A DNA stretch of 32,000 bases from Demequinaceae bacterium (GCA_965250005.1 OZ252279.1:1260001-1292000); one strand, 5' to 3'; counted from the stretch's first letter, positions 11,412 to 26,786 are shown. Translations and numbers: made by a program. The notes: generated from the letters alone by a model not told the origin.

Positions 11412-11447
11412 CGCGATCTCACTTGACTTTGGCCTCAAATCCCCCAT

Positions 11448-11470
11448 ACTTGAGTCTTAGTGGCTCAACT
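11448..11470. promoter_or_regulatory. HAIR-like inverted repeat (HspR operator), proximal copy
   Basis: aCTTGAGT-cttagtg-GCTCAACt, 25 nt upstream of the dnaK ATG. The left arm matches the HAIR consensus half-site exactly. Confidence 0.75.
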
Positions 11471-11494
11471 TGGAGCCCGAAGGAAGGAACACGC

Positions 11495-13348
<1,854 letters not shown>

Positions 13349-13408
13349 CCGAGTGCTGGGCGTGAGGGCGCTTACCCTCACGCCCTCCTCGCGCAACATA
13401 GGAGCGCC

Positions 13409-13996
13409 ATGACTGACAAGAATCCCGCGGCCGACGAGCCGCAAGACCCATCCACCGGAGCGGCGGCGAAGTCAACCGCGGACGCCAAGGCCGTGGCTGA
13501 CGCGGAGGCGATCATTGCTGACGCTGCCGAGACCATCGAGGACGCTCCTCCGGCCCGGCCGACGAGCCCGCTCGAGGCAGCCGAAGCATCAGCAGCCGAG
13601 CACCTCAACGATCTTCAGCGCCTCCAAGCTGAATTCGTCAACTATCGCAAGCGCGTCGATCGCGACCGCGCGCAGGTGAGCGAGTTCGCCGCAGCCAAAG
13701 TCATCGAGTCCCTCATCCCGGTGCTCGACGACGTCCACGCGGCGCGCGACCATCAGGAACTCGAAGGCCCGTTCTCCGCAATCGCGGACAAGCTTGAAGC
13801 CGCCCTCGAGCGACTTGGGTGGAGCTCCTATGGCGCGGAAGGCGAGCATTTCGACCCCGCGTTGCACGAGGCGCTGGTCTCAACCCCCGAAGAGGGCGTC
13901 AAGGAGCCGACCATCAAGCAGGTTGCCCAACCTGGCCACAAACTGGGTGACAAGGTGCTGCGGCCCGCCCGCGTCATCGTCGCTCAGCCCGAATAG
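13409..13996 (+). CDS. grpE: Nucleotide exchange factor GrpE
   Basis: 195 aa. LQRLQAEFVNYRKRVDRD.. and the C-terminal FDP.LHEA....G.KLGD.VLRPA.V are GrpE hallmarks. Occupies the dnaK-grpE-dnaJ position. Confidence 0.93.
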   Translation: MTDKNPAADEPQDPSTGAAAKSTADAKAVADAEAIIADAAETIEDAPPARPTSPLEAAEASAAEHLNDLQRLQAEFVNYRKRVDRDRAQVSEFAAAKVIESLIPVLDDVHAARDHQELEGPFSAIADKLEAALERLGWSSYGAEGEHFDPALHEALVSTPEEGVKEPTIKQVAQPGHKLGDKVLRPARVIVAQPE

Positions 13997-14038
13997 CTCC
14001 CGTGCCGGCCGTGCACGCTCAACCCGGAAGGAGGCACC

Positions 14039-14977
14039 GTGACTAGTCAGGATTGGTTCAGCAAGGACTTCTACAAGACGCTCGGCGTGCCCAAGGGCGC
14101 AGACGAGACTGCCATCAAGAAGGCTTACCGCCAGCTCGCGCGCAAACTTCACCCGGATGCGAGTCCCGGCGACGCCAAAGCCGAGGAGCGGTTCAAGGAA
14201 ATCGGCGAAGCGTACGCAGTGCTGTCCGACAAGGAGCAGCGCAAACAGTACGACGCTGTGCGAGCCATGGGCGGCGGAGCGCGCTTCCAGTCGGGCGGCG
14301 GAGGCGCAGAAGACGCATTCAGTGGAATGTTCGGTGGTGGTGGCCGACGCAGTGGGGGCGGATCCACGCGCGGCTTCGAGGACATCCTCGGGGGAATGTT
14401 CGGTGGTGGCGGCTTCAACATGGGACCTCAGCCGGGTGCTGACCTGAACGCCGCCACAGAAGTCTCGTTTCGACAGGCCGCTGAGGGGGCGACCGTGCGC
14501 CTGCTCGTTGGCGCCAACGCGGTGTCCACGCGCATTCCCGTCGGCGTGCGCGACGGCCAGAAGATCAAGCTGCGAGGCAAGGGCCAGCAGAGCCCCAACG
14601 GCGGGCCGCCGGGCGACCTAGTCATCACCATTCACGTGGGCAAGCACCCCGTGTTCACGGCTGACGGCACGCACCTACGCGTCCGCGTCCCGATCACGTT
14701 TGACGAGGCCGCGCTCGGTGCCACCGTCGAGGTACCGACGCTCGACGGGTCGCGCGTCAAGATGAAAGTGCCGGCCGGCACTTCCTCCGGTCAGACGCTG
14801 CGCGTGAAGGGTCGCGGGCTCGCCGCCAAGGCGGGTACCGGCGACCTCCTCGCCACCATCGAGGTCCACGTGCCCCCGAAACTGTCGAAGGCCGCAAGGT
14901 CCGCGCTCAAAGAATTCGCCACCGCTACCGAGCGTGAAGACGTTCGCGAGAGTTGGCTGCGCGACGCGGCACAGTAA
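14039..14977 (+). CDS. dnaJ: J-domain co-chaperone DnaJ, class II architecture (no Cys-rich zinc-finger domain)
   Basis: J domain DFYKTLGV...[14 protein letters not shown]-rich region, then C-terminal beta domains ([13 protein letters not shown]). There is no cysteine anywhere in the 312 aa. GTG start with SD GGAAGGAGG. Confidence 0.9.
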
Positions 14978-15027
14978 GTTGATAGAGATCACTGTGGTGA
15001 CCAAGGCTCGACAACAGGGAGGCGGCG

Positions 15028-15429
15028 ATGAAGCAGCCCAACATTGACGAGCCAGTCTTCCCCATATCCGCGGCCTCAGAACTTGCGGGAATGCACGCTC
15101 AGACGCTCCGCCAATACGACAGGCTCGGGCTGGTTGTTCCTGGACGGCGACGCGGTGGTGGCCGCCGCTACTCGCTGCGCGACATTGCCACCCTCCGCGA
15201 GGTCCAGCGCATGAGCCAAGACGAGGGCATCAATCTCGCTGGAATCGCCCGCATTCTCAAACTGACCGAGACCGTCGCGCGGCTCGAGGCCGAAGTTCAG
15301 AAGCTTCGGCCGCGCGCCGACGTCGGCTCCCGTGTGTTCACATCAGGTCCGTCCGGGAAGGTCGTCATCGTTGAGCGCGGCCACCGCGGGGATCGCGACG
15401 AGGGCAGGTCCCTCGTCGTGTGGCGATGA
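15028..15429 (+). CDS. hspR: MerR-family heat-shock repressor HspR
   Basis: 133 aa. The MerR HTH reads FPISAASELAGMHAQTLRQYDRLGLV.P.R..GG.RRYS.RDI..L. It is the last gene of the dnaK operon, and HAIR sites lie upstream of dnaK. Confidence 0.88.
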   Translation: MKQPNIDEPVFPISAASELAGMHAQTLRQYDRLGLVVPGRRRGGGRRYSLRDIATLREVQRMSQDEGINLAGIARILKLTETVARLEAEVQKLRPRADVGSRVFTSGPSGKVVIVERGHRGDRDEGRSLVVWR

Positions 15430-15574
15430 CGCCATCCTTCGCCACACCGCACGCGGCACGTTCACGCGACTGGACCGTCAGACTTCCATCGCGACCGGGC
15501 TCGAGCCCAACCTAGACTGACCTCATGCCCATCGATCTGGCGCGCGCGCCGACACCCGTGCGGCCGAATCGGTC

Positions 15575-16699
15575 GTGCACCTCAACAACGCTGGCGCCTC
15601 GCTCCCACCTGCCGCCGTGATAGACGTGGTTCACGAGCAGCTCCGGCAAGACGAGGAGCTCGGCGGCTACGAAGCTCACGAGAACGCGGCAGACAAACTT
15701 GCGGAAGCCCACGCGTCGGTTGCCTCCCTAGTGGGCGGAAAGCCCGAACAAGTCGCTTTCCTCGATAGTTCCACGCGAGCGTGGCAGACGGCGCTCTACT
15801 CGCTGCCATGGAAGGAGGGCGATCACATTCTGGCGTCCGAGGCCGAGTACCCCTCGAACGTTTACGCATTTCTGCACCTGCGTGATCACTTGGGCGTTGA
15901 GACCACCTACGTACCCGACGACGAGCACGGGCAGATTAACGTAAATGCGCTACAGGCGGCAATCCGGCCAAAGACGCGCCTCATCGCTCTCACACACATT
16001 CCAACGTACGGCGGCCTCATCAACCCAGCCCAGCGCGTGGGTGAGATCGCGCGGGGCGCAGGCGTCTTGTTCCTGCTCGACGCTTGCCAGAGTGTGGGGC
16101 AACTTCACATCGACGTCGAGGAAATCGGCTGCGACATGCTCACCTCCGCCGGCCGCAAGTACCTTCGAGGACCGCGCGGAACTGCCTTCCTGTGGGTGCG
16201 CAATGAACTAAGTACGGCCATGAGCTCCGCGTTCTCGGACAACCATGCGTCCAGTTGGACCGCACCAGAAGCATTTGTGCCTGCGCCATACGCGCAAAGG
16301 TTCGAGCCGTTCGAGAGCTCACGAGCGCTTCACCTGGGCCTCGGCGCAGCAGCGCAATACGCCATGAGCATCGGTACAAGAAACATCGAGGAGAGGGTCA
16401 TTGCGCTCGGCGCCAGCCTGCGATCCGGCCTTGAAGAAATCCGGGGTGTCGAGATTCACGATCGCGGTGAGCGCCGAGGAGGGATAGTGACGTTCACCGT
16501 CGACGGGTTCGCGCCCAGCGCCGTCAAGACGGCTCTAGGCCACGCGCACATCAACACATCGATAACGTCGACGGGGTCGGCGATGCGAAACTTCCCTAAA
16601 CGTGGTCTGACCGATGTCTCGCGCGCATCCGTCCATTACTACAACACCGACGAAGAAATCGCTGCAACAACGGATGTGATCCGCGCGCTCGTCGCTTAG
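15575..16699 (+). CDS. Class V aminotransferase-fold PLP enzyme (cysteine desulfurase / C-S lyase-like)
   Basis: VHLNNAGASLPP, ALTHIPTYGG, LLDACQSVGQ, and the PLP-lysine region SAGRKYLRGPRGTAFLWV. The start is uncertain: GTG 15575 is the only in-frame start (see finding on 15518-15580). Confidence 0.75.
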   Translation: MHLNNAGASLPPAAVIDVVHEQLRQDEELGGYEAHENAADKLAEAHASVASLVGGKPEQVAFLDSSTRAWQTALYSLPWKEGDHILASEAEYPSNVYAFLHLRDHLGVETTYVPDDEHGQINVNALQAAIRPKTRLIALTHIPTYGGLINPAQRVGEIARGAGVLFLLDACQSVGQLHIDVEEIGCDMLTSAGRKYLRGPRGTAFLWVRNELSTAMSSAFSDNHASSWTAPEAFVPAPYAQRFEPFESSRALHLGLGAAAQYAMSIGTRNIEERVIALGASLRSGLEEIRGVEIHDRGERRGGIVTFTVDGFAPSAVKTALGHAHINTSITSTGSAMRNFPKRGLTDVSRASVHYYNTDEEIAATTDVIRALVA

Positions 16700-16705
16700 G
16701 GTGAT

Positions 16706-17680
16706 TTGGTGACTTCAGACAACGCAGTCGAGGCCGAGGGCCTCGTCAAGAATTTCAAGGAAACCAAAGCTCTCACGGGAATAGACCTTGCCGTACCGCG
16801 CGGCACGGTACTCGGAGTCCTCGGGCCCAATGGTGCTGGCAAGACCACGGCTGTACGCATTCTCGCCACGCTCCTACGCGCCGATGCGGGCCGGGCAATG
16901 GTTGCTGGCTACGACGTCGCCAAGCACCCACAGCGTGTTCGCGAGCGCATCGGTCTTACAGGGCAGTACGCCTCTGTCGACGAGGACCTCACGGGACGCG
17001 AGAATCTCCACATGATCGCGGGGCTTCTCAACTTCACGGGCGCCGACGGCAAGGTGCGCTCGGCCGAGTTGCTCGACTGGTTTGACCTCGCCGAAGCCGC
17101 CGACCGCAAGGTAAAAGGATATTCGGGCGGTATGCGGAGGCGGCTTGATCTTGCCGCGAGCCTCATCGGTCGGCCCGAGATCGTGTTCCTCGACGAGCCG
17201 ACAACTGGCCTCGACCCCGCCAAACGCGAGGACATGTGGGACGTGGTGCGCGGGATCGTCAGCGAGGGGACGTCGGTCCTGCTCACGACGCAGTACCTTG
17301 ACGAGGCAGACGCACTAGCCGATGACATCATCGTCATCAACCACGGAACGGTGATCGCGCACGACACTGCCGACAACCTCAAGCGCGTAGTCGGGTCGCA
17401 GACACTCCAGGTACGACCATCGCACGCGGTCGACGCTTCCAAGGTCAAGTCGATCCTCACGTCTGTCGCACCTGGCGCCAAGGTCGACGAACCCCGCAAG
17501 GGCCTGTTCTCCGTGCCAGTTCCAGGCGACGGCGTGCTGGCCGCGGCGGTCACTGCGCTCAAGAAGGAGAAGGTTGACGTGACCGAACTTGCGTTGCGTT
17601 TGCCCAGCCTTGACGAAGCCTTCTTCGCTCTGACAGGCGAGAGAGAACCCGACGCCACTGACGAGGAGGATGCGGCATGA
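16706..17680 (+). CDS. ABC transporter ATP-binding protein, DrrA-like (ABC-2 exporter ATPase)
   Basis: Walker A GPNGAGKTT, Q-loop GLTGQY, signature YSGGMRRRLDLA, Walker B IVFLDEPTTGLD. TTG 16706 or GTG 16709 start. ATGA overlap with the permease gene at 17677. Confidence 0.85.
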   Translation: MVTSDNAVEAEGLVKNFKETKALTGIDLAVPRGTVLGVLGPNGAGKTTAVRILATLLRADAGRAMVAGYDVAKHPQRVRERIGLTGQYASVDEDLTGRENLHMIAGLLNFTGADGKVRSAELLDWFDLAEAADRKVKGYSGGMRRRLDLAASLIGRPEIVFLDEPTTGLDPAKREDMWDVVRGIVSEGTSVLLTTQYLDEADALADDIIVINHGTVIAHDTADNLKRVVGSQTLQVRPSHAVDASKVKSILTSVAPGAKVDEPRKGLFSVPVPGDGVLAAAVTALKKEKVDVTELALRLPSLDEAFFALTGEREPDATDEEDAA

Positions 17681-18705: not shown

Positions 18706-19476
18706 CTACCGCTGCAGCGTGCTCAAGAGTTCGACCGCGTCGTCATGGGCGCCCGGAAGGGGCTCGACCCACACTCGCGGAGGTTGACGCGTCAAGTTTC
18801 CGACGCGCATAGAACTAGCGCGTTCCGAGATGTGCTCGCGGAGCGCCGCGATCCCGGCGCCCAGTTCTTGGCCACGCTTGACGAGGACAGCGTAGAGTCC
18901 GTCGCTCAGGTGTGCGATCGGGTGTCCGTCACCGTACGCACCTCTAAGCGCCGCGCCGACAGCGGCGTTGCGCGCGATGCGCTGCCATACGTCTGAGTCC
19001 ACTACGGAGACATCGACGATCACGAGCGCGTGCGTGTCGCCAACGACCGCGCCCGTCTCTCCTGCCATTCCGTAAACTTCAACAAGGCGCTGAGACAGGT
19101 AGTCGACCGTGCCGAGCCCGGATTCCGGGTCACGCACGCCAGTCTGGTTCTGGGAATTGGCCGATCCCCGCGTCCAACCCTCGCACAACGCGCGAACGGC
19201 GCGGATGGGGGTGTCCTCGTAATTCGCGGTGCGGAACACAATCGCGAGGTCGTCAATTGCCTCGGTTATCCCCACTCCCGCGTTGGCGCGTGCTTCACCC
19301 AACCGCGCGGCTGCGGGGGCAGTGTCCAGGTTCGCCTCCACGGCTTCCACCAAGGCGTCGACAGCTGGCGTGTACCAGTCCATTGGCCGTAGCCATACGG
19401 ACTCGACGCTTGCCTCCCGCCACTCGGTGAGGAGCGTACTGCCAGCGGCTGGGCCAGTTACGTTTGCAGTGGTCAT
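18706..19476 (-). CDS. Hypothetical cytoplasmic protein with a degenerate GGDEF-like C-terminal half
   Basis: 256 aa, no TM segment. RDPESGLGTVDYLSQRL / HALVIVDV / IAHLSDGLYAVLV line up with GGDEF-domain blocks (D.LTGL.NRR.L / lallflDiD / .aRlGGDEFavLl), but the signature is SDGLY instead of GG(D/E)EF. Similarity judged by eye only. Confidence 0.45.
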   Translation of the reverse strand: MTTANVTGPAAGSTLLTEWREASVESVWLRPMDWYTPAVDALVEAVEANLDTAPAAARLGEARANAGVGITEAIDDLAIVFRTANYEDTPIRAVRALCEGWTRGSANSQNQTGVRDPESGLGTVDYLSQRLVEVYGMAGETGAVVGDTHALVIVDVSVVDSDVWQRIARNAAVGAALRGAYGDGHPIAHLSDGLYAVLVKRGQELGAGIAALREHISERASSMRVGNLTRQPPRVWVEPLPGAHDDAVELLSTLQR

Positions 19477-19662
19477 GCACTATGAGAGGCACCCGGTCCC
19501 GGGTTATGACGCGCATTGCGCAAGCAATCTAGGGGTCGCCAGAAGGGCAGTGCGATGTGACGAACTCCGCACCCTCCTGACTTGCATCGCAATCGCAACC
19601 AATGGACGATTGAATGTAAGAGGAGTGCGTGGCGCCGTGCCATGTACTGTGCGAGGAGAGCG

Positions 19663-22479
19663 ATGGGTCAGAGCGCTATCAGTCTCTGGACAGAACAGTC
19701 CAGTGACGCGGAGTTGATTGCCGGCGTACGCGCTGGCGAGTCGGCTGCGTTTGGCGTGCTCTACGAGCGTCACGGTCCCGCCGCCAAGCGGGTCGCGAGC
19801 ATGTATTCCGCAGTTGCCTCCGATGTCGACGACGTTGTTTCCGAGGCGTTCGCGCGCGTCCTCAAAGCTCTCCAGGAGGGCCGAGGCCCCGACCTCGCGT
19901 TCCGCGCGTACCTCTTCACCGTTGTACGCCGTACTGGTCTTGACCTCATCAAGAAGGGCAAGCGGGCACGGCCCGACGAGGACATGGAGTCTCACAGCGC
20001 GGCGATCGGCTACGAGCCGGCGAGCGACGAACCGACGCTGAATAACTTTGAGCAGGGAGTGGTCGCCGAAGCATTCAAATCACTGCCTGAGCGGTGGCAG
20101 ACCGTTCTCTGGTACACCGAGATCGAGAAGAAGTCACCGGCCGAGGTCGCGCCCCTGCTTGGGCTCTCGGCAAACGGTGTTGCCGCGCTCGCCTACCGCG
20201 CCAGGGAAGCTCTACGCCAGGCGTACTTGCAGCAGCACCTCGCGACAGCGGACGACGTGAATTGTGTTGAGGTGAGCGAGCACCTCGGGGGCTACGTGCG
20301 CGGCGGTCTAACGAAGCGCGAACACGCCAAAGTCGATGCCCACGTGGTAGAGTGCGGCCGCTGCGCTGCGCTCATCGCCGAACTCACAGATGTAAACCGT
20401 GGCTTGCGCGCCGTGATCGCGCCGCTCGCGCTTGGAATCCTCGGCATGGGTGCCCTGGAGTCCAGTCTGCCCATCGGCGGAATCGGCGCTGGATCCGTGG
20501 GTGCCGCAGGCTCGGTCGGCGCATCGGCGGGCACGGGCGTAGGAGCCGGAGCGACCGTCGGTGCCGGGACGGGTTTCGGCGGGGCAATGGCGGTCTTGTT
20601 CGGAACCGGCTCAGGCGTTCTCACGAGCATCGCCGCAACCATTGGCGTTGGCGCGCTCGTCGTCGCGACTGCGGGCGTGGTGGGCAACATTGACGCGATT
20701 GATTCCGCCGCAGATTCCGCTCAGCAGTCGCCTGTGGTGGTCGAAGCCGCGAGTGAAAGCGCTGTGACGGTTGTCCTCCGCGGCGAAAAACCGTTCGGTC
20801 CTCAGTCACTGACAGCAGGCCCGGCAGTTCCTGAGGGCGGCGTTTCCGTTCCAGGCAAAGTCCCAGAAGAACCCATCGAAATCATCACTATCGCCCCCGG
20901 GGCCGGCAGCACGGCCGACTCGGGCACGGGTGGAGACTCGGGCACGGGTGGAGACTCGGGCACGGGTGGAGACTCGGGCACGGGTGGAGACTCGGGCACG
21001 GGTGGAGACTCGGGCACGGGTGGAGACTCGGGCAGCGGCACAGGAACCGCAACCCTGGCGCTCGGAGCGGGCACGCTCAACTACATTGAGTTGGCTGCCA
21101 CCTCCCCCACGATCGCACTGAAGCTCACGAACTCGGGCGACGGTAGCTCAGACAGCCCCACCGTAGTCATCGCACTTCCGGCCGGCCTGACATTCGCTAG
21201 CCCGAGTGGCGGCGGCGGAAGCATCGGTCTGCACTCCGCTGAACGGCTCGGCGCGTTTGTCGGATTCGCTACTGGAGCGACGTTCGCCGTTGACGCCTGG
21301 TTTTGTGCGGTAAACGACGACGCAACCACGGCAACGTGCACCACCGACTCGATTGATGCATCGAGCGAGGTTGTTCTCACCCTCGACGTTGACGTTGTCG
21401 GGGCCCTCGCAGACGACGCGGTCACTACCTTCGACGTCGCTGACAGCAGCGGACTCGAAGAGTCGCTCACGGTCGCCACTGGAGTCGCGGCAGCAGATCG
21501 CAACGTCAACCTTGGGTACTACTACGAAGGCGCCTACGGTTACGTCATCTCTGGCACCACGCTTGTCGCGTGCGACTTGGACGACCGCGACTGTGAGAAG
21601 GCGATGGACTTCAACGGCAACGCAGTGAAGGCCGAGCACAGCAACGACGCCTGGACGGTCGAGGCGCTCAATGAAGACGGCGGAGCAACCATATCGAAGT
21701 CCACGATCGTCACAGTGCCGGCAGGTGCGGGCGTCGAGCGTGCCACGGTCGAGTGGTCTGTAAGTTCGCCAGCAGGCATCGGCTTCATCGGAGACCCGGG
21801 CTCAGCCAATATCCGCCCCGCAGGAGCGAGCGAGTTCACATCCATCACCGGAGCCACTGTCTCTACAGTGACCAACGCATCCGGCAGCTACTACATTGCG
21901 CGCGCCGACATCACCTCCTTAGTTGATGAGTACGGTAGCGGCGCATGGACGCTCGCAGATGTGGCATTGCCGCCCAACTTTGATGACGCCCACGCTGAGT
22001 TTGGAAGTTTCGCAGGCTTCGCGATCACCGTGATTTTCGAGAACGAGGACCTACCTCAGACGAAGATCGCGGTGTACACCGGCGACCACCTAGTAGCCGA
22101 CGGCACTCCGTTGGACATTCGCCTCGCGACTGAAACTGGCGGAACTGTCGAAGTGGCGACCATCACGTGGGACGGTGACCGCGGCGAGGATGGCGACACC
22201 GTCTCGCTCGACGGCGAGGACCTGAAGTCCATCCACTGGAACGGCTCGAACACGTCAACGGGAGACGACAGCAACGCTGGCGATTCGACCGCATTCGGCT
22301 CGGACTTTGCGAATAACCTCGGTACCGACGCGAAGTCCTTCAAGGTCGAGAACGTCGAAGAGGGAACACACCGGATAACTGCAGCGACGACTGGCGACCA
22401 GTTCATCGTCGGTCAAATACTGGTGGCCGTCATCGAGGACGAAGAAGACGATGATGATGGCGACGGTGACGACGACTAG
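19663..22479 (+). CDS. Single-polypeptide ECF sigma factor fused to a ZAS-type anti-sigma domain, a membrane region and a large extracytoplasmic domain
   Basis: Sigma-70 region 2 (SDVDDVVSEAFARVLKAL....FRAYLFTVVRRTGLDLIKK). Region 4 (LPERWQTVLWYTEIEKKSPAEVAPLLGLSANGVAALAYRAREALRQAYL). zf-HC2 motif C-x26-HVVECGRC (20263-20364). Gly/Ala-rich hydrophobic stretch (~20400-20690). GDSGTG repeats, a DUF11-like block (IALKLTNSG..VVIALPAGLTFAS..WFCAV....ATCTT), a beta-rich C-terminal domain with the paired Cys C-x6-C, and the acidic tail EDEEDDDDGDGDDD. ATG 19663 with SD GAGGAGAG is preferred over 19582. Confidence 0.8.
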   Translation: MGQSAISLWTEQSSDAELIAGVRAGESAAFGVLYERHGPAAKRVASMYSAVASDVDDVVSEAFARVLKALQEGRGPDLAFRAYLFTVVRRTGLDLIKKGKRARPDEDMESHSAAIGYEPASDEPTLNNFEQGVVAEAFKSLPERWQTVLWYTEIEKKSPAEVAPLLGLSANGVAALAYRAREALRQAYLQQHLATADDVNCVEVSEHLGGYVRGGLTKREHAKVDAHVVECGRCAALIAELTDVNRGLRAVIAPLALGILGMGALESSLPIGGIGAGSVGAAGSVGASAGTGVGAGATVGAGTGFGGAMAVLFGTGSGVLTSIAATIGVGALVVATAGVVGNIDAIDSAADSAQQSPVVVEAASESAVTVVLRGEKPFGPQSLTAGPAVPEGGVSVPGKVPEEPIEIITIAPGAGSTADSGTGGDSGTGGDSGTGGDSGTGGDSGTGGDSGTGGDSGSGTGTATLALGAGTLNYIELAATSPTIALKLTNSGDGSSDSPTVVIALPAGLTFASPSGGGGSIGLHSAERLGAFVGFATGATFAVDAWFCAVNDDATTATCTTDSIDASSEVVLTLDVDVVGALADDAVTTFDVADSSGLEESLTVATGVAAADRNVNLGYYYEGAYGYVISGTTLVACDLDDRDCEKAMDFNGNAVKAEHSNDAWTVEALNEDGGATISKSTIVTVPAGAGVERATVEWSVSSPAGIGFIGDPGSANIRPAGASEFTSITGATVSTVTNASGSYYIARADITSLVDEYGSGAWTLADVALPPNFDDAHAEFGSFAGFAITVIFENEDLPQTKIAVYTGDHLVADGTPLDIRLATETGGTVEVATITWDGDRGEDGDTVSLDGEDLKSIHWNGSNTSTGDDSNAGDSTAFGSDFANNLGTDAKSFKVENVEEGTHRITAATTGDQFIVGQILVAVIEDEEDDDDGDGDDD
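20917..21036 (+). repeat. Perfect in-frame 18-bp tandem repeat (6 identical units plus a degenerate 7th) encoding (GDSGTG)n
   Basis: GACTCGGGCACGGGTGGA is repeated head-to-tail at 20917, 20935, 20953, 20971, 20989 and 21007 with zero mismatches. A seventh unit starting at 21025 diverges after 10 nt. Confidence 0.97.
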
Positions 22480-22495
22480 CCTGCCTCTCTCTTCC

Positions 22496-22536
22496 AGTGA
22501 GTAGGGCCCCCGGCTATGCCGGGGGCCCTACTCACT
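22496..22536. terminator. Bidirectional intrinsic terminator hairpin between the convergent sigma-fusion gene and nrdB
   Basis: AGTGAGTAGGGCCCCCGGC-tat-GCCGGGGGCCCTACTCACT, a 19-bp perfect stem. It lies 17 nt after the + strand stop and 11 nt after the nrdB stop. Confidence 0.8.
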
Positions 22537-22546
22537 GCTGTTCGAC

Positions 22547-23565: not shown

Positions 23566-26500
23566 CTACTGGCAGGACTCGCACTGCAAGCGTTCCATGG
23601 GATCGACCGGGCACGCTACCCCGTCGATCAACTCGGTATCACCATCAAGCGACGCCACCGGGTCCAGTTCCAAAACTGGTAGCTGAACGGCACCCGACGG
23701 CGCCTCAACGACCGCTGGAACTACCTGTGCTGAAAATCCCACGGCACTCGGTTTGGATGGAGCCACGTTCTCGCGCACCTCAGGCGCAGTTGCCGGCTCC
23801 GGAAGTGACGTGGGAGGCACGGCAGGCTGCGCGGTCGGGGGCTTCGCGAACGCCTTGTTCGCAACCATGGAGAGGATCGACGCCGGTGCCGTCGAAATCG
23901 ACGACTTCCGCGGAGCCGAGTCATGTTCGGTCCCATTCACCTGGTCTGGCGCGACAGTTCGGATTTCCGCTGTCACCGTTTCCGTCAGATTCACATCAAC
24001 CGCGTCAACGACCTCGGTCCCCGTCACCGGTATGGTCCCCGTCGTGAGGGTGGCCTCCTGAGCGGCGACGGCTGGCGCCGCTGGCGCAACAGCCGCCGCG
24101 ACTGCGCCAGTATCTTTAGCGCTTGGTCCTGAGCCCGCCTTAGCGGCTCCAAAGCCTCCGAAGCCCTTGCGTGCTGGCCCAGGCGACTTAGTGGCCGTAG
24201 ACGGCGCCGTACCGGCATTGCCGGTGCTGTTGAGCTTTTCGGTCTTGTTGACACGAACCGTGGACTGTTCGGCAGTGTGGCGTGGCTTCATGTGGAGGTA
24301 GTACGTGGTCTTGACGCCACGCTCCCAGGCCGCCGAGTAGAGCGCCATCATTTCTTCAACGTCGCGTGACTCTAGGTAGATGTTGCGGCTGATCGCCTGG
24401 TCAATCCACTTCTGGGCGCGAGCTGCGACCTCAATGAACGCGTAGGGGGAGAGCTGGAACGAGGTCTTGTAGACCTCCTGCAGGTGCTCGGGAACTTCCG
24501 AGATCTGGCTCAGGTCGCCCTGAACCTCGAGGAGCCGATCCTTCACGTCCTCCCACATTCCCACCTTCTGGAGGTCCTTCACCAGGTTGCGGTTGACCTC
24601 GAGGAATTTGCCCGACGAGGTGGCGCGGCTGAATATCTGCGAGAACTGCGGATCGAACCCAGGCGTGGTGCCTGCGACAAGGCCGATCGATGCGGTGGGC
24701 GCGACGGCCATGAGGGTCGCGTTGCGGATGCCGCCCTTGACCTTTTCGCGCAGTGTGTCCCAGTCGAGGCGCATGACGCGGTCGACGGCGATGGGGACGC
24801 CGCGGTCGGCTTCTGTAGTCGCAATAGTGTCGAAGGGCACGAGTCCCTTTGACCAGCCGGAGCCTTCAAAGTTGCTGTACGAACCGCGCTCGCGCGCAAG
24901 ATCCGCGGAGGCGTCAATCGCGTGGAACGAGACAAACTCCATGATTTGGTCGATCAGCGAATAAGACTCTTCAGACTCGTACGCCATTCCCATGCGCTCG
25001 GTAACGTCTGTGAAGCCCATGACGCCAAGCCCGACCGCGCGGTTGGAACGGTTCGCGAACTCGGATTCCGCTACGGACGACAACGTGATGTCTACCAAGT
25101 TGTCGAGCTGGCGAACTGCCAGCCGCACGGACTTCTCCATGCGATCCCATTCGAGTTTGCCGTCCACAAAGTGCTCGGACAGGTTGACCGATGCCAGGTT
25201 GCACACCGCGATGTTCTCTCGGTCTTGCGGGAGACAGATCTCAGTGCAGAGGTTCGAGAGGTGAATGGTGCCGGTGTTGGTGTTGAGGGCACGGTTGTTG
25301 ATGGTGTCCTTCCACGTCAGCCACGGGTGCGACGTGGTCTGCAACATGACAAGGATCGACTTGTATTGCTCGCGCGCCTTCATCTTGGTGAAACTGCGTA
25401 CCTTGCCTGCCTCAGCGAGGTTGATGAGCTCTTGGTAACGCTCGGAAAACGCTGAACCGGTGAGCTCAACAAGGTCGGGCGCTTCGGCTGGGTCGAACAA
25501 GTACCAGTCCTGGTCTGCTGCGACGCGCTTCATGAACTCATCCGAGATCCAGACCGCAGTGTTGGCCGTGCGGGTGCGCCGGTACGGGTCACCGGAGTTC
25601 TGGCGCAGGTCAAGGAACTGCGCGAAATCCATGTGCCAGTTCTCCATGTAGAAGCACAGGGCGCCAAACTTCTTGCCGCCGCGGCTCACCGCACGCAGCG
25701 TGGAGTCGATGGTGTGCATGAACGGGATGGGACCGGTCGACGTGGTGTTGTTTGACTTGATGGGCGAGCCTTCGGACCGCAGCTTGGTGACGGACAGGCC
25801 GATTCCGCCGGTGCCCTTGGTGAGCCACATGACGTCCCGCACAGACTTCGCGATGTGCTCGATGTCGTCTTCCATCTGCATGACGAAGCAGTTTGAAAGC
25901 TGAGGGTAGGACGTACCTGCGTTCACGAGCGTCGAGCCCGCGGGAAGGTAGTCGAGCCGCGAGATCTTCTCGTAGAACTCGATGGCCATCTCAGTGGGGT
26001 TCGCCTCGTTCAGAGAGAGTCCCATGGACACGCGCATCCAGAAGTACTGCGGTACCTCAAGTGCCTTGCCGTTGCGGTCAGTGATCATATAGCGGTTGCG
26101 CATGGTCACAGAGCCGATGTATTTCAGCAGGTCATCACGGGTGTGGTCGACCGCCGCCGCGAGGGCGTCGAGGTCGAACAGTGTCCCGAGCCGCGCGTCG
26201 AGGAGGCCTTCTTCCACAGCGTCGCGGATGTAGCCTGGGAACCGCGCCTGGTGAAGCAGTGCGAGTTCGAGGTCGGACTCGTAGCCGCCGAGCACGCGCT
26301 TGTTGATCACTTTGCGCAGCAGGCGCGACGCGATGATGTCGAAGTCTGGGTCGTCCTTGACGTTTTGGACGGCGACGCCAATGGCGGCCTCGTCGAGCTG
26401 TTCGGTGGTGATTCCGTCGAACAACGTAATGCCGAGCTCGGTCGCCACCTGGGTGACCTTGGAGATCTGATCGTCCAGGCCCTCAGCCGCGCGCTCGATC

Positions 26501-26640
26501 GCCTTATTAATGCGGTCGGCGTTATAAGGTTCACGCGTGCCATCGCGCTTGGTGACGTGGATGCCTGTGTAGGTAGCCTCGACCGGTGCTCCGGCGTCGC
26601 CGTTGACCCTGGCCTGCGTTGTCGGATCAGTAATAGTCAC
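23566..26640 (-). CDS. nrdA: Class I ribonucleotide reductase large (alpha/R1) subunit with a long low-complexity C-terminal linker
   Basis: N-terminal VTKRDGTREPYNADRINKAIERA. Catalytic core motifs (SNCFV, NLCTEI, GLGVMG, TTYY). C-terminal redox tail ACPVDPMERLQCESCQ. GTG 26640 with SD GAGAGGGAAG is preferred over the upstream in-frame start at 26715. Confidence 0.92.
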   Translation of the reverse strand: MTITDPTTQARVNGDAGAPVEATYTGIHVTKRDGTREPYNADRINKAIERAAEGLDDQISKVTQVATELGITLFDGITTEQLDEAAIGVAVQNVKDDPDFDIIASRLLRKVINKRVLGGYESDLELALLHQARFPGYIRDAVEEGLLDARLGTLFDLDALAAAVDHTRDDLLKYIGSVTMRNRYMITDRNGKALEVPQYFWMRVSMGLSLNEANPTEMAIEFYEKISRLDYLPAGSTLVNAGTSYPQLSNCFVMQMEDDIEHIAKSVRDVMWLTKGTGGIGLSVTKLRSEGSPIKSNNTTSTGPIPFMHTIDSTLRAVSRGGKKFGALCFYMENWHMDFAQFLDLRQNSGDPYRRTRTANTAVWISDEFMKRVAADQDWYLFDPAEAPDLVELTGSAFSERYQELINLAEAGKVRSFTKMKAREQYKSILVMLQTTSHPWLTWKDTINNRALNTNTGTIHLSNLCTEICLPQDRENIAVCNLASVNLSEHFVDGKLEWDRMEKSVRLAVRQLDNLVDITLSSVAESEFANRSNRAVGLGVMGFTDVTERMGMAYESEESYSLIDQIMEFVSFHAIDASADLARERGSYSNFEGSGWSKGLVPFDTIATTEADRGVPIAVDRVMRLDWDTLREKVKGGIRNATLMAVAPTASIGLVAGTTPGFDPQFSQIFSRATSSGKFLEVNRNLVKDLQKVGMWEDVKDRLLEVQGDLSQISEVPEHLQEVYKTSFQLSPYAFIEVAARAQKWIDQAISRNIYLESRDVEEMMALYSAAWERGVKTTYYLHMKPRHTAEQSTVRVNKTEKLNSTGNAGTAPSTATKSPGPARKGFGGFGAAKAGSGPSAKDTGAVAAAVAPAAPAVAAQEATLTTGTIPVTGTEVVDAVDVNLTETVTAEIRTVAPDQVNGTEHDSAPRKSSISTAPASILSMVANKAFAKPPTAQPAVPPTSLPEPATAPEVRENVAPSKPSAVGFSAQVVPAVVEAPSGAVQLPVLELDPVASLDGDTELIDGVACPVDPMERLQCESCQ

Positions 26641-26786
26641 GTCTTCCCTCTCGTTCGGTCTCGGTCCCACCGAAGCCGGTCCCTTGCTGCTCTCAAAACT
26701 CTTCGCCGGGCACACAAGAAGCGGAAAACTAACCGCGCCACCCTGCGCTTAAGGCGTCCTTTGAAGATACAAAAAACGGGCCGAAA

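Follow-up and report, generated by a model that had tools for sequence, protein, structure and literature searches.

We analyzed a 32,000-nt stretch of the genome of a Demequinaceae bacterium (GCA_965250005.1, OZ252279.1:1260001-1292000; hereafter the window), in which a single gene encodes an extracytoplasmic function (ECF) sigma factor, a zinc-binding anti-sigma (ZAS) domain, a hydrophobic anchor region and a large distal region in one polypeptide (Table 1). The open reading frame (ORF) runs without interruption from a TTG at 19582 or an ATG at 19663. The ATG is the likely translation start because 61 aligned homologs begin at the equivalent residue and a GAGGAGA sequence occupies positions 19653-19659. 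A divergent gene immediately upstream, here called the partner gene, encodes a degenerate GGDEF-like protein, and a convergent nrdB gene lies downstream.

Table 1. Features of the sigma fusion locus (positions counted from the first nucleotide of the window; aa, amino acids; AF2, AlphaFold2; pLDDT, predicted local distance difference test; TRF, Tandem Repeats Finder).
Feature	Position	Strand	Evidence
Partner gene, 256 aa: N-terminal helical region and degenerate GGDEF-like domain	18706..19476	-	PDB profile, loci comparison
GCGTCATA-n15-CCTC-TCAT, candidate ECF-type promoter for the partner gene, whose ATG lies 5 nt beyond (leaderless geometry)	19483..19512	-	Conserved motif
TGTGA-N6-CCGCA (CRP-like) and TTGCAT-N17-GACGAT (housekeeping-type -35/-10)	19556..19610	+	Alignment of 27 Demequinaceae intergenic regions
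Sigma/anti-sigma/membrane/surface-domain fusion gene	19663..22479	+	Single ORF, 938 aa plus stop; Pfam, TIGR02937 and homologs alike
Sigma-70 region 2 (aa 33-101)	19759..19965	+	Pfam PF04542, 1.1e-12, 47.9 bits vs cut-off 24; AF2 pLDDT >90
Sigma-70 region 4 (aa 134-186)	20062..20220	+	Pfam PF08281 (Sigma70_r4_2), aa 134-184, 1.4e-5
ZAS zinc-binding anti-sigma motif (aa 201-235), C201...H227-x3-C231-x2-C234	20263..20367	+	Pfam zf-HC2, 5.7e-7
H1 (aa 244-267), conserved hydrophobic helix	20392..20463	+	AF2 helix 244-267, pLDDT ~67
Charge-free Gly/Ala-rich tether between H1 and H2	20464..20616	+	No charged residue; AF2 disordered
H2 (aa ~319-342), probable single transmembrane helix	20617..20688	+	Kyte-Doolittle maximum 2.0-2.1
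Acidic/Gly/Ser/Thr linker, non-conserved, holding the tandem repeat	20689..21057	+	AF2 disordered
Perfect 18-bp x 6.6 tandem repeat encoding (GDSGTG)n	20917..21034	+	TRF score 236, 100% matches
Ig-like (DUF11/CARDB-related) beta-sandwich with conserved pair C548/C559	21058..21462	+	AF2 beta strands
Tip domain, 325 aa: DUF3344-related double beta-sandwich with invariant pair C637/C644, presumed extracytoplasmic sensor	21463..22437	+	AF2, profile search
Poly-acidic tail DEEDDDDGDGDDD, non-conserved	22438..22476	+	Confined to nearest relatives
20-bp GC-rich hairpin between the convergent sigma gene and nrdB	22495..22537	.	-46.2 kcal/mol, z = -8.9

Relatives of the fusion protein are numerous. A word-indexed protein search returned 1530 matches, the best 120 of which were nearly all 900-1600 aa long with an identical N-terminal sigma and zf-HC2 arrangement and came from Demequina, Cellulomonas, Isoptericola, Sanguibacter and related metagenome-assembled genomes (MAGs). 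The closest match, in a Demequinaceae-like MAG, shared 80% identity. When one genome per species was scanned, 599 candidate stretches emerged and 574 were confirmed as relatives, placing the family in at least 574 species genomes of Actinomycetes. These added Actinotalea, Oerskovia, Cellulosimicrobium, Luteimicrobium and Pengzhenrongella, and relatives from Amycolatopsis, Kibdelosporangium and Haloechinothrix were ~55% identical over aa 13-265. The ORF is intact in complete genomes such as that of Cellulomonas gilvus (CP002665). A first-pass annotation, made from the window sequence alone, had proposed that sigma factor, ZAS domain, membrane anchor and extracytoplasmic domain are covalently joined, and the intact ORF and the breadth of its relatives bear this out. 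All named relatives belong to Actinomycetes orders, save a full-length homolog (P0097) in a MAG labelled Brevundimonas (Alphaproteobacteria); because this protein is 57% identical to actinobacterial proteins, the label is probably due to a binning contaminant.

The N-terminal part of the protein has the make-up of a group 4 (ECF) sigma-70 factor, with sigma2 and sigma4 as its only sigma regions (no match to region 1 or region 3 was found in the fusion protein) and ECF sigmas as its closest solved relatives, the nearest to region 2 being E. coli sigma-E (1.1e-12). The NCBIfam model TIGR02937 (sigma70-ECF) covered aa 29-187 with 70.4 bits against a cut-off of 42.9, the ZAS domain scored 30 bits against 22.2 for zf-HC2, and Sigma70_r4_2 reached 25.1 bits, slightly below its cut-off of 25.7. 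The domain calls of the first-pass annotation therefore held up in profile searches, with Sigma70_r2, zf-HC2 and TIGR02937 above threshold and Sigma70_r4_2 just under it, and its ZAS coordinates were exact (C201 at nt 20263, and HVVECGRC, from H227 to C234, at nt 20341-20364). In an alignment of 62 homologs, H227, C231 and C234 never vary, and conservation of C201 is at least 90%. AF2 was confident for sigma2, sigma4 and the ZAS helices (199-213, 218-230 and 232-242), so that the ligand set H/C...H-x3-C-x2-C falls within a helical domain, as in class I ZAS proteins. Based on these comparisons, the sigma and ZAS parts look functional.

A profile built from the ZAS domain and the hydrophobic helix H1 matched the anti-sigma domains of ChrR, RslA, DdvA and RsiW; in ChrR-sigmaE (2Q1Z), RslA-SigL (3HUG) and RsiW-SigW (5WUQ), the match extended past helix III. 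Binding probably takes the form seen in these separate ZAS anti-sigma factors, but in cis. Those systems consist of two proteins, whereas here the two are covalently joined, the helix-IV equivalent is wholly hydrophobic and a long Gly/Ala tether follows it.

The first-pass annotation had noted a membrane anchor, and a hydrophobic anchor region does exist, in a subtler form than described: aa 251-365 make up a Gly/Ala/Val-rich stretch (G26, A24, V15) with zero K or R, and every homolog has two hydrophobic segments, H1 and H2. In H1 the hydrophobic segment spans aa 249-266 and follows the conserved pattern RxxIAPLxLGxxGxGAL, with P254, G258 and L265 invariant, which is far more conservation than a lipid anchor requires. 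In the AF2 model, H1 is a helix that runs on from those of the ZAS domain, and aa 267-442 are unstructured. Against ChrR (2q1z_B; E = 0.0025, query positions 14-73), H1 aligned with residues 53-69, a cytosolic linker/helix IV stretch with an identical A-P-[VL] motif. Because H1 starts 15 residues after the CxxC, where class I anti-sigma domains have helix IV, it is probably helix IV of the anti-sigma domain and not a membrane pass.

The loop between H1 and H2 is of low complexity (Gly/Ala/Ser/Thr) in 116 homologs, in which it ranges from 35 to 207 aa and contains 0.36 K+R and 0.49 D+E per 100 aa. In the same homologs, the 20 aa before H2 hold 16 K/R vs 2 D/E, and the 20 aa after it are acidic (10.8 D+E vs 1.1 K+R per 100). 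Relatives from the Pseudonocardiales have a lysine after H1 and a conserved PRQF before H2. The positive-inside rule applied to these charges places the loop in the cytoplasm. We favor, with moderate confidence, a single-pass topology with the N-terminus in and the C-terminus out, in which H1 would be the helix-IV equivalent, the loop a cytoplasmic tether and H2 the sole pass.

Domain boundaries beyond H2 were drawn from local HMMER comparisons with the 120 homologs. The linker (aa 343-465) matched none of them, and its tandem repeat, called hypervariable in the first-pass annotation, indeed differs in unit and copy number at the equivalent position of the nearest relatives (18 bp x 4.3, 15 bp x 3.1, 15/21 bp x 3-6 and 9 bp x 8.8). 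The Ig-like block that follows (aa 466-600) is common to 51 of the 120 homologs, essentially all of them Demequinaceae; in relatives, the stretch from the membrane to the terminal domain holds a varying number of DUF11, CARDB or NEW3 domains. Describing this block as DUF11-like proved partly right: it is a beta-sandwich in the AF2 model, and DUF11 is significant in homolog P0006 (1e-6, 29.5 bits) but sub-threshold in the window protein (E = 0.051). The paired cysteines reported in the first-pass annotation are real and form two conserved pairs, of which WFCAV..ATCTT (C548/C559) lies in the Ig-like block rather than in the last domain. The acidic tail is present as well, although only the closest relatives have one, and we rejected it as a feature of the family.

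The tip domain (aa 601-925) was found in 115 of the 120 homologs, always at the extreme C-terminus. Using a 27-sequence alignment, AF2 produced a confident all-beta model (pLDDT 90.3, predicted TM-score 0.90). A Foldseek search of the PDB matched it to PNGase F-like proteins (7zgn, 4qhb and 3ks7, with a lowest E of 7e-6), tandem carbohydrate-binding modules (CBMs) and double-jelly-roll proteins, and we describe the domain as a pair of beta-sandwiches. A word-indexed search with this domain alone recovered only nine fragments, and an exhaustive profile search was therefore used, which recovered 4850 protein clusters containing it (819 with E <= 1e-30). Besides sigma fusions, many of these proteins are 500-4000 aa long, with the domain starting at residue 16-64. 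In each of the six that were inspected, a signal peptide precedes the domain; at least two of the six end in a hydrophobic segment and arginines resembling a cell-wall sorting signal, and each of the five scanned against Pfam carried 1-10 DUF11 repeats.

DUF3344 (PF11824) was the sole recurrent Pfam family among members of the tip family (4 of 27 aligned homologs, best E 4e-7); other relatives scored a borderline 22-27 bits against a cut-off of 27.2, and the window protein had no match even at E = 0.1. The relationship indicated by these scores is therefore transitive and at the superfamily level only. An N-terminal cluster overlapping DUF3344 (cluster 23) has been described in predicted fibrillar adhesins as of 'ambiguous function' (Monzon et al. 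2022, PMC9210967). The DUF3344-tipped adhesins of that study share with the fusion protein a homologous tip domain and DUF11-type stalk domains. They differ in carrying the tip at the N-terminus of a secreted, wall-anchored protein, whereas here it is found at the C-terminus of a membrane-tethered transcription factor. Because the family also heads signal-peptide-led DUF11-repeat surface proteins, its membership indicates that the tip is an adhesin-type domain lying outside the cell.

The partner gene adjoins the sigma gene, upstream and divergent, in 84 of 87 loci ranging from Demequina to Amycolatopsis across several actinomycete orders (for example, L001 5055-5825, L005 5080-5835 and L068 3855-4700). 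It is the sole conserved neighbor, and the remaining neighborhood varies. We found at least 615 homologs of its product, the best 120 of which are nearly all 250-265 aa long. The protein has no Pfam match, GGDEF included, although UniRef names some members 'GGDEF domain-containing protein'. When a six-sequence profile was compared with the PDB, the top five hits were GGDEF proteins, with weak similarity over aa 102-227 (E 0.019-0.73). The start of the domain, D-P-E/L-[ST]-G-L, is retained, and the GG[DE]EF position reads SDGLY in the window and GDGLY, GGGxF or GPSVV elsewhere. Having neither the GG[D/E]EF motif nor the GGDEF profile match of a diguanylate cyclase, the partner is best regarded as a degenerate, probably non-catalytic GGDEF-like protein.

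Upstream of the partner gene, on its sense strand, 68 of 83 non-redundant loci carry a bipartite motif, GCGTCA[T/C][A/G]-n15-C[G/C]TC-TCAT, whose background rate across those loci is 0.015 hits per kb-strand. The spacing within the motif does not vary, and the -10 part is often the canonical CGTC, a geometry comparable to that of the ECF41 promoter motif TGTCACA-n16-CGTC (PMC3426412). In Micrococcales, the partner ATG or GTG follows the TCTCAT by 4-5 nt and has no Shine-Dalgarno sequence, which implies a leaderless mRNA. One clade (L007, L056, L060, L073 and L075) instead has a ~45-nt leader with a Shine-Dalgarno sequence (GGAAAGGAGG) after the motif, and in four of these five loci a second copy faces the sigma gene (for example, CGTCATG-n15-CGTC-TCAT). 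Two identically designed divergent promoters beside an ECF gene are a classic signature of promoters read by the gene's own sigma factor. Based on the motif and its placement, the partner gene is probably a target of the fused sigma factor.

The motif does not precede the sigma gene itself in Demequina, Cellulomonas or their relatives, and general autoregulation was rejected on that ground. In the Pseudonocardiales the sigma gene is preceded by GTCACAC, but a convincing -10 was not found at the proper spacing. In the window and other Demequina loci we tentatively assign transcription of the sigma gene to a housekeeping promoter. The TGTGA-N6-CCGCA element, like the TTGCAT-N17-GACGAT pair, is conserved within the Demequinaceae; it consists of CRP/GlxR-like half-sites and its reverse complement reads CGTCACA. 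The elements at 19556-19610 might represent a site for CRP, the housekeeping promoter or another -35 element directed at the partner gene. We also observed, at 19513-19535 and equivalent Demequina positions, a short A/T-rich inverted repeat beside GCGTCAT in many loci (for example, TTCCGAAAAA-TTTTTCGGAA), which may serve the divergent promoter region as an operator.

The first-pass annotation had also reported a strong terminator directly 3' of the fusion gene and the lack of a separate anti-sigma gene. A strong hairpin is indeed present, and the window gene tables and Pfam matches show no anti-sigma gene on either flank. The hairpin is likely to be a bidirectional terminator without a U-tract. 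A consensus promoter and terminator scan missed it because no T-run follows, and called no promoter either. Further upstream (11423-17680) the window contains dnaK-grpE-dnaJ, a class V aminotransferase and an ABC-2 transporter pair. Part of this order, dnaK/grpE/dnaJ/MerR-type regulator with nrdBA downstream, recurs in a Demequina locus (L001) and to some extent in Isoptericola (L006), and the upstream ABC transporter is an insertion found only in the window lineage. In the large subunit of class I ribonucleotide reductase (23566-26715, - strand), the ATP-cone, lgN and barrel domains end near aa 807, and a ~240-aa Ala/Pro/Val-rich low-complexity extension precedes the C-terminal cysteine cluster (…CPVDPMERLQCESCQ).

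Fused sigma/ZAS/transmembrane/extracytoplasmic proteins have been catalogued in Actinobacteria as ECF48, ECF52 and ECF53 (Huang et al. 2015 as cited in PMC5826349, PMC8999054), some ECF52/53 members carrying glycoside-hydrolase or carbohydrate-binding domains. The window protein is a well-documented example of this class and not a new type of system. The first-pass annotation had pointed to a catalogued actinobacterial class with zf-HC2 and transmembrane extensions, and the order of parts agrees; its view that mechanism, ligand and regulon are not established for the actinobacterial fused groups also agrees with the literature. It erred in calling such fusions catalogued only bioinformatically: knock-out, truncation and RNA sequencing (RNA-seq) data exist for SCO4117, an ECF52 protein of Streptomyces coelicolor (Lopez-Garcia et al. 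2018, PMC5826349), and the fused IutY (ECF243) is released by Prc/RseP.

Compared by description, SCO4117 and the window protein share the order of ECF sigma factor, zf-HC2, transmembrane region, low-complexity linker and beta-rich extracytoplasmic domain, as well as restriction to Actinobacteria and the lack of a separate anti-sigma gene, and activation by sigma excision would fit both equally well. The zinc finger is followed by a transmembrane helix or helices, as in ECF52, but the Pro-rich extension with a carbohydrate-binding domain is not found. SCO4117 has a Pro-rich linker and an NPCBM domain, whereas the window protein has a repeat linker (8 Pro in 105 aa; Gly/Thr/Ser/Asp-rich), an Ig-like block and the DUF3344-related domain, and no Pfam match to NPCBM or any other CBM. 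It may still answer to the spirit of the ECF52 description, given the Pro/Thr-rich linkers of its relatives and fold neighbors that are CBM-like or PNGase F-like at low TM-score. The published ECF52 description is closer to the relatives in the Pseudonocardiales, which have a Pro-rich linker and DUF11-like domains but lack DUF3344. The upstream neighbor of SCO4117 is atrA, in contrast to the pairing of the window family with a divergent degenerate-GGDEF gene, and the published SCO4117 motif, CSGYN-17-SRHA, differs from the one found here and is too degenerate for a meaningful comparison.

As outlined by Marcos-Torres et al. (2022, PMC8999054), ECF53 and ECF48 are likewise fused sigma/ZAS proteins with one or two transmembrane helices and predicted proteolytic activation. 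That outline gives their extensions as 'of up to 400 residues', compared with ~740 aa in the window protein and >1900 aa in relatives. IutY of Pseudomonas putida also combines sigma factor, anti-sigma factor, a single transmembrane helix and an external domain in one polypeptide. It belongs to an unrelated ECF group, pairs a FecI-type sigma with a FecR-like anti-sigma rather than a ZAS domain, and works in Gram-negative cell-surface signaling with a TonB-dependent receptor. IutY offers the best mechanistic model of the way in which the window protein may work.

We consider it reasonably likely that the fusion protein is a cis-inhibited ECF sigma factor that responds to an external signal, is released by proteolysis and then activates the partner promoter. 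ZAS helices I-III, with their C/H-x3-C-x2-C site, and the hydrophobic helix H1 would clamp sigma2 and sigma4 in cis, and the charge-free Gly/Ala tether would lead to the single transmembrane helix H2, with the hypervariable linker, the Ig-like stalk and the double beta-sandwich tip outside. A signal at the tip, probably a glycan or another cell-surface or envelope ligand, would trigger regulated proteolysis, in which site-1 cleavage outside, site-2 cleavage in the membrane and cytoplasmic trimming would free the sigma moiety. The freed sigma would direct RNA polymerase to CGTCAYR-n15-C[G/C]TC-TCAT, yielding the leaderless transcript of the degenerate-GGDEF gene, and in some clades would also transcribe its own gene from a like promoter. 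Proteolytic release is favored because of two precedents, IutY, in which activation by Prc/RseP was shown, and SCO4117, for which it was proposed (PMC8999054, PMC5826349).

Several observations weigh against this account. No protease gene lies nearby within the window. The partner promoter could be read by another sigma factor, and its motif is absent upstream of the window sigma gene, whose own promoter looks housekeeping-type, so that autoregulation is not general. In the SCO4117 knock-out the neighboring genes were unchanged, though that locus has a different neighbor. TM-scores of the tip domain in the Foldseek search were only ~0.25, hence no ligand can be inferred from its fold neighbors. 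Finally, AF2 gave no confident structure for aa 267-442, H2 included, and the number of membrane passes therefore rests on sequence statistics.

The two options raised in the first-pass annotation, proteolytic release and a conformational switch, are those discussed in the literature (PMC8999054, PMC5826349). A switch without cleavage, in which the ZAS domain would let go of the sigma moiety upon oxidation of the zinc site or zinc loss (RsrA-style) or upon an external conformational change, is in our view unlikely. In this reading the sigma factor would be active while tethered, the long flexible Gly/Ala tether (35-207 aa) allowing it to bind membrane-localized RNA polymerase. Three points speak for a switch: the full set of zinc ligands is present without variation, the composition of the tether is conserved while its sequence and length are not, and the literature keeps the conformational option open for ECF52. 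However, many ZAS proteins are not redox sensors, as illustrated by RslA and ChrR vs RsrA, and a flexible, charge-free, disordered tether would poorly transmit a conformational change across a single helix. Moreover, IutY, the sole fused sigma/anti-sigma protein studied mechanistically, is cleaved.

Other readings concern the topology. A three-pass protein, with H1 as the first pass and site-2 protease substrate, a helical hairpin formed by the Gly/Ala and H2 region and the C-terminus outside, is a decidedly weak candidate. H1 has helix-destabilizing residues (P254/G258/G261), as substrates of site-2 proteases do (for example, those of RseP and RasP), a conserved Pro divides H2 into a short and a long half, and ~20 of 120 homologs show a third hydropathy peak. 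That peak, however, is Ala/Gly/Val low-complexity sequence missing from most homologs, including the short-loop P0114 and P0120, there is no polar turn, and the positive loop residues of the Pseudonocardiales favor a cytoplasmic loop. A two-pass protein, with H1 and H2 spanning the membrane, the Gly/Ala loop outside and the C-terminal region in the cytoplasm sensing an intracellular or membrane cue, is very improbable. Both segments do exceed the usual hydropathy thresholds (family medians 1.98 in a 17-aa window for H1 and 2.26 in a 21-aa window for H2), and reviews mention 'one to two' transmembrane helices for ECF48/52/53-type groups. Such a naive count would nonetheless leave the 600-aa region in the cytoplasm, in conflict with the surface-protein family of the C-terminal domain, which elsewhere sits right behind signal peptides. 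It is further opposed by the conserved cysteine pairs, the K/R before and acidic residues after H2, the alignment of H1 with a cytosolic part of ChrR and the Pro/Thr-rich, wall-spanning linkers that follow H2 in relatives.

That a sequencing or assembly frameshift joins the sigma gene to a separate anti-sigma or surface-protein gene has almost no probability: two nanopore-derived MAG relatives (L064 and L009) have ORFs broken in a low-complexity region and the S. clavuligerus ortholog of SCO4117 is split, but the junction between region 4 and the ZAS domain (aa 186-201) is conserved without gaps across 62 aligned homologs and intact in complete genomes, the breaks elsewhere fall in repeats and represent error in the opposite direction, and the conserved junction and the species-genome scan together rule the artifact out. 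The frame is uninterrupted at the point between region 4 and the ZAS domain where the first-pass annotation had considered a split, and these comparisons indicate that the fusion is real and ancient. The two broken orthologs (L064 5001-7796 and L009 5001-7807) are interrupted within the Gly/Ala region or the tandem repeat; the two halves in L009 correspond to P0052 and P0121, and the L064 partner gene is frameshifted as well. These breaks are probably nanopore or assembly errors in repeats rather than repeat-mediated phase variation.

To the picture of the catalogued class this analysis adds the adhesin-type tip, H1 as the probable helix-IV equivalent, the tether free of charge, a degenerate-GGDEF partner that is nearly obligatory and its candidate ECF-type leaderless promoter. 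As a more speculative and rather doubtful proposal, the family could be a self-contained two-gene surface-sensing circuit in which H1 evolved to be fully hydrophobic, the tether is functional and the sole conserved target is a leaderless gene for a dead GGDEF-like protein. If so, the tether would be a leash that sets the reach of the sigma factor or a 'slippery' stop for a processive protease, from which the sigma part would survive degradation, and the GGDEF-like protein would pass on, or act back upon, the signal that the adhesin-type DUF3344 tip senses.

The window protein leaves the picture of possible sigma-factor control unchanged. Fused sigma/anti-sigma proteins are, however, the least understood mode of ECF regulation, and this family offers several experimental handles: one partner gene that is conserved throughout, a candidate promoter with sharp boundaries that could be made into a reporter, a testable prediction as to which hydrophobic helix is the real membrane pass, and an extracytoplasmic domain common to adhesin-like surface proteins, which hints at the cue that is sensed.

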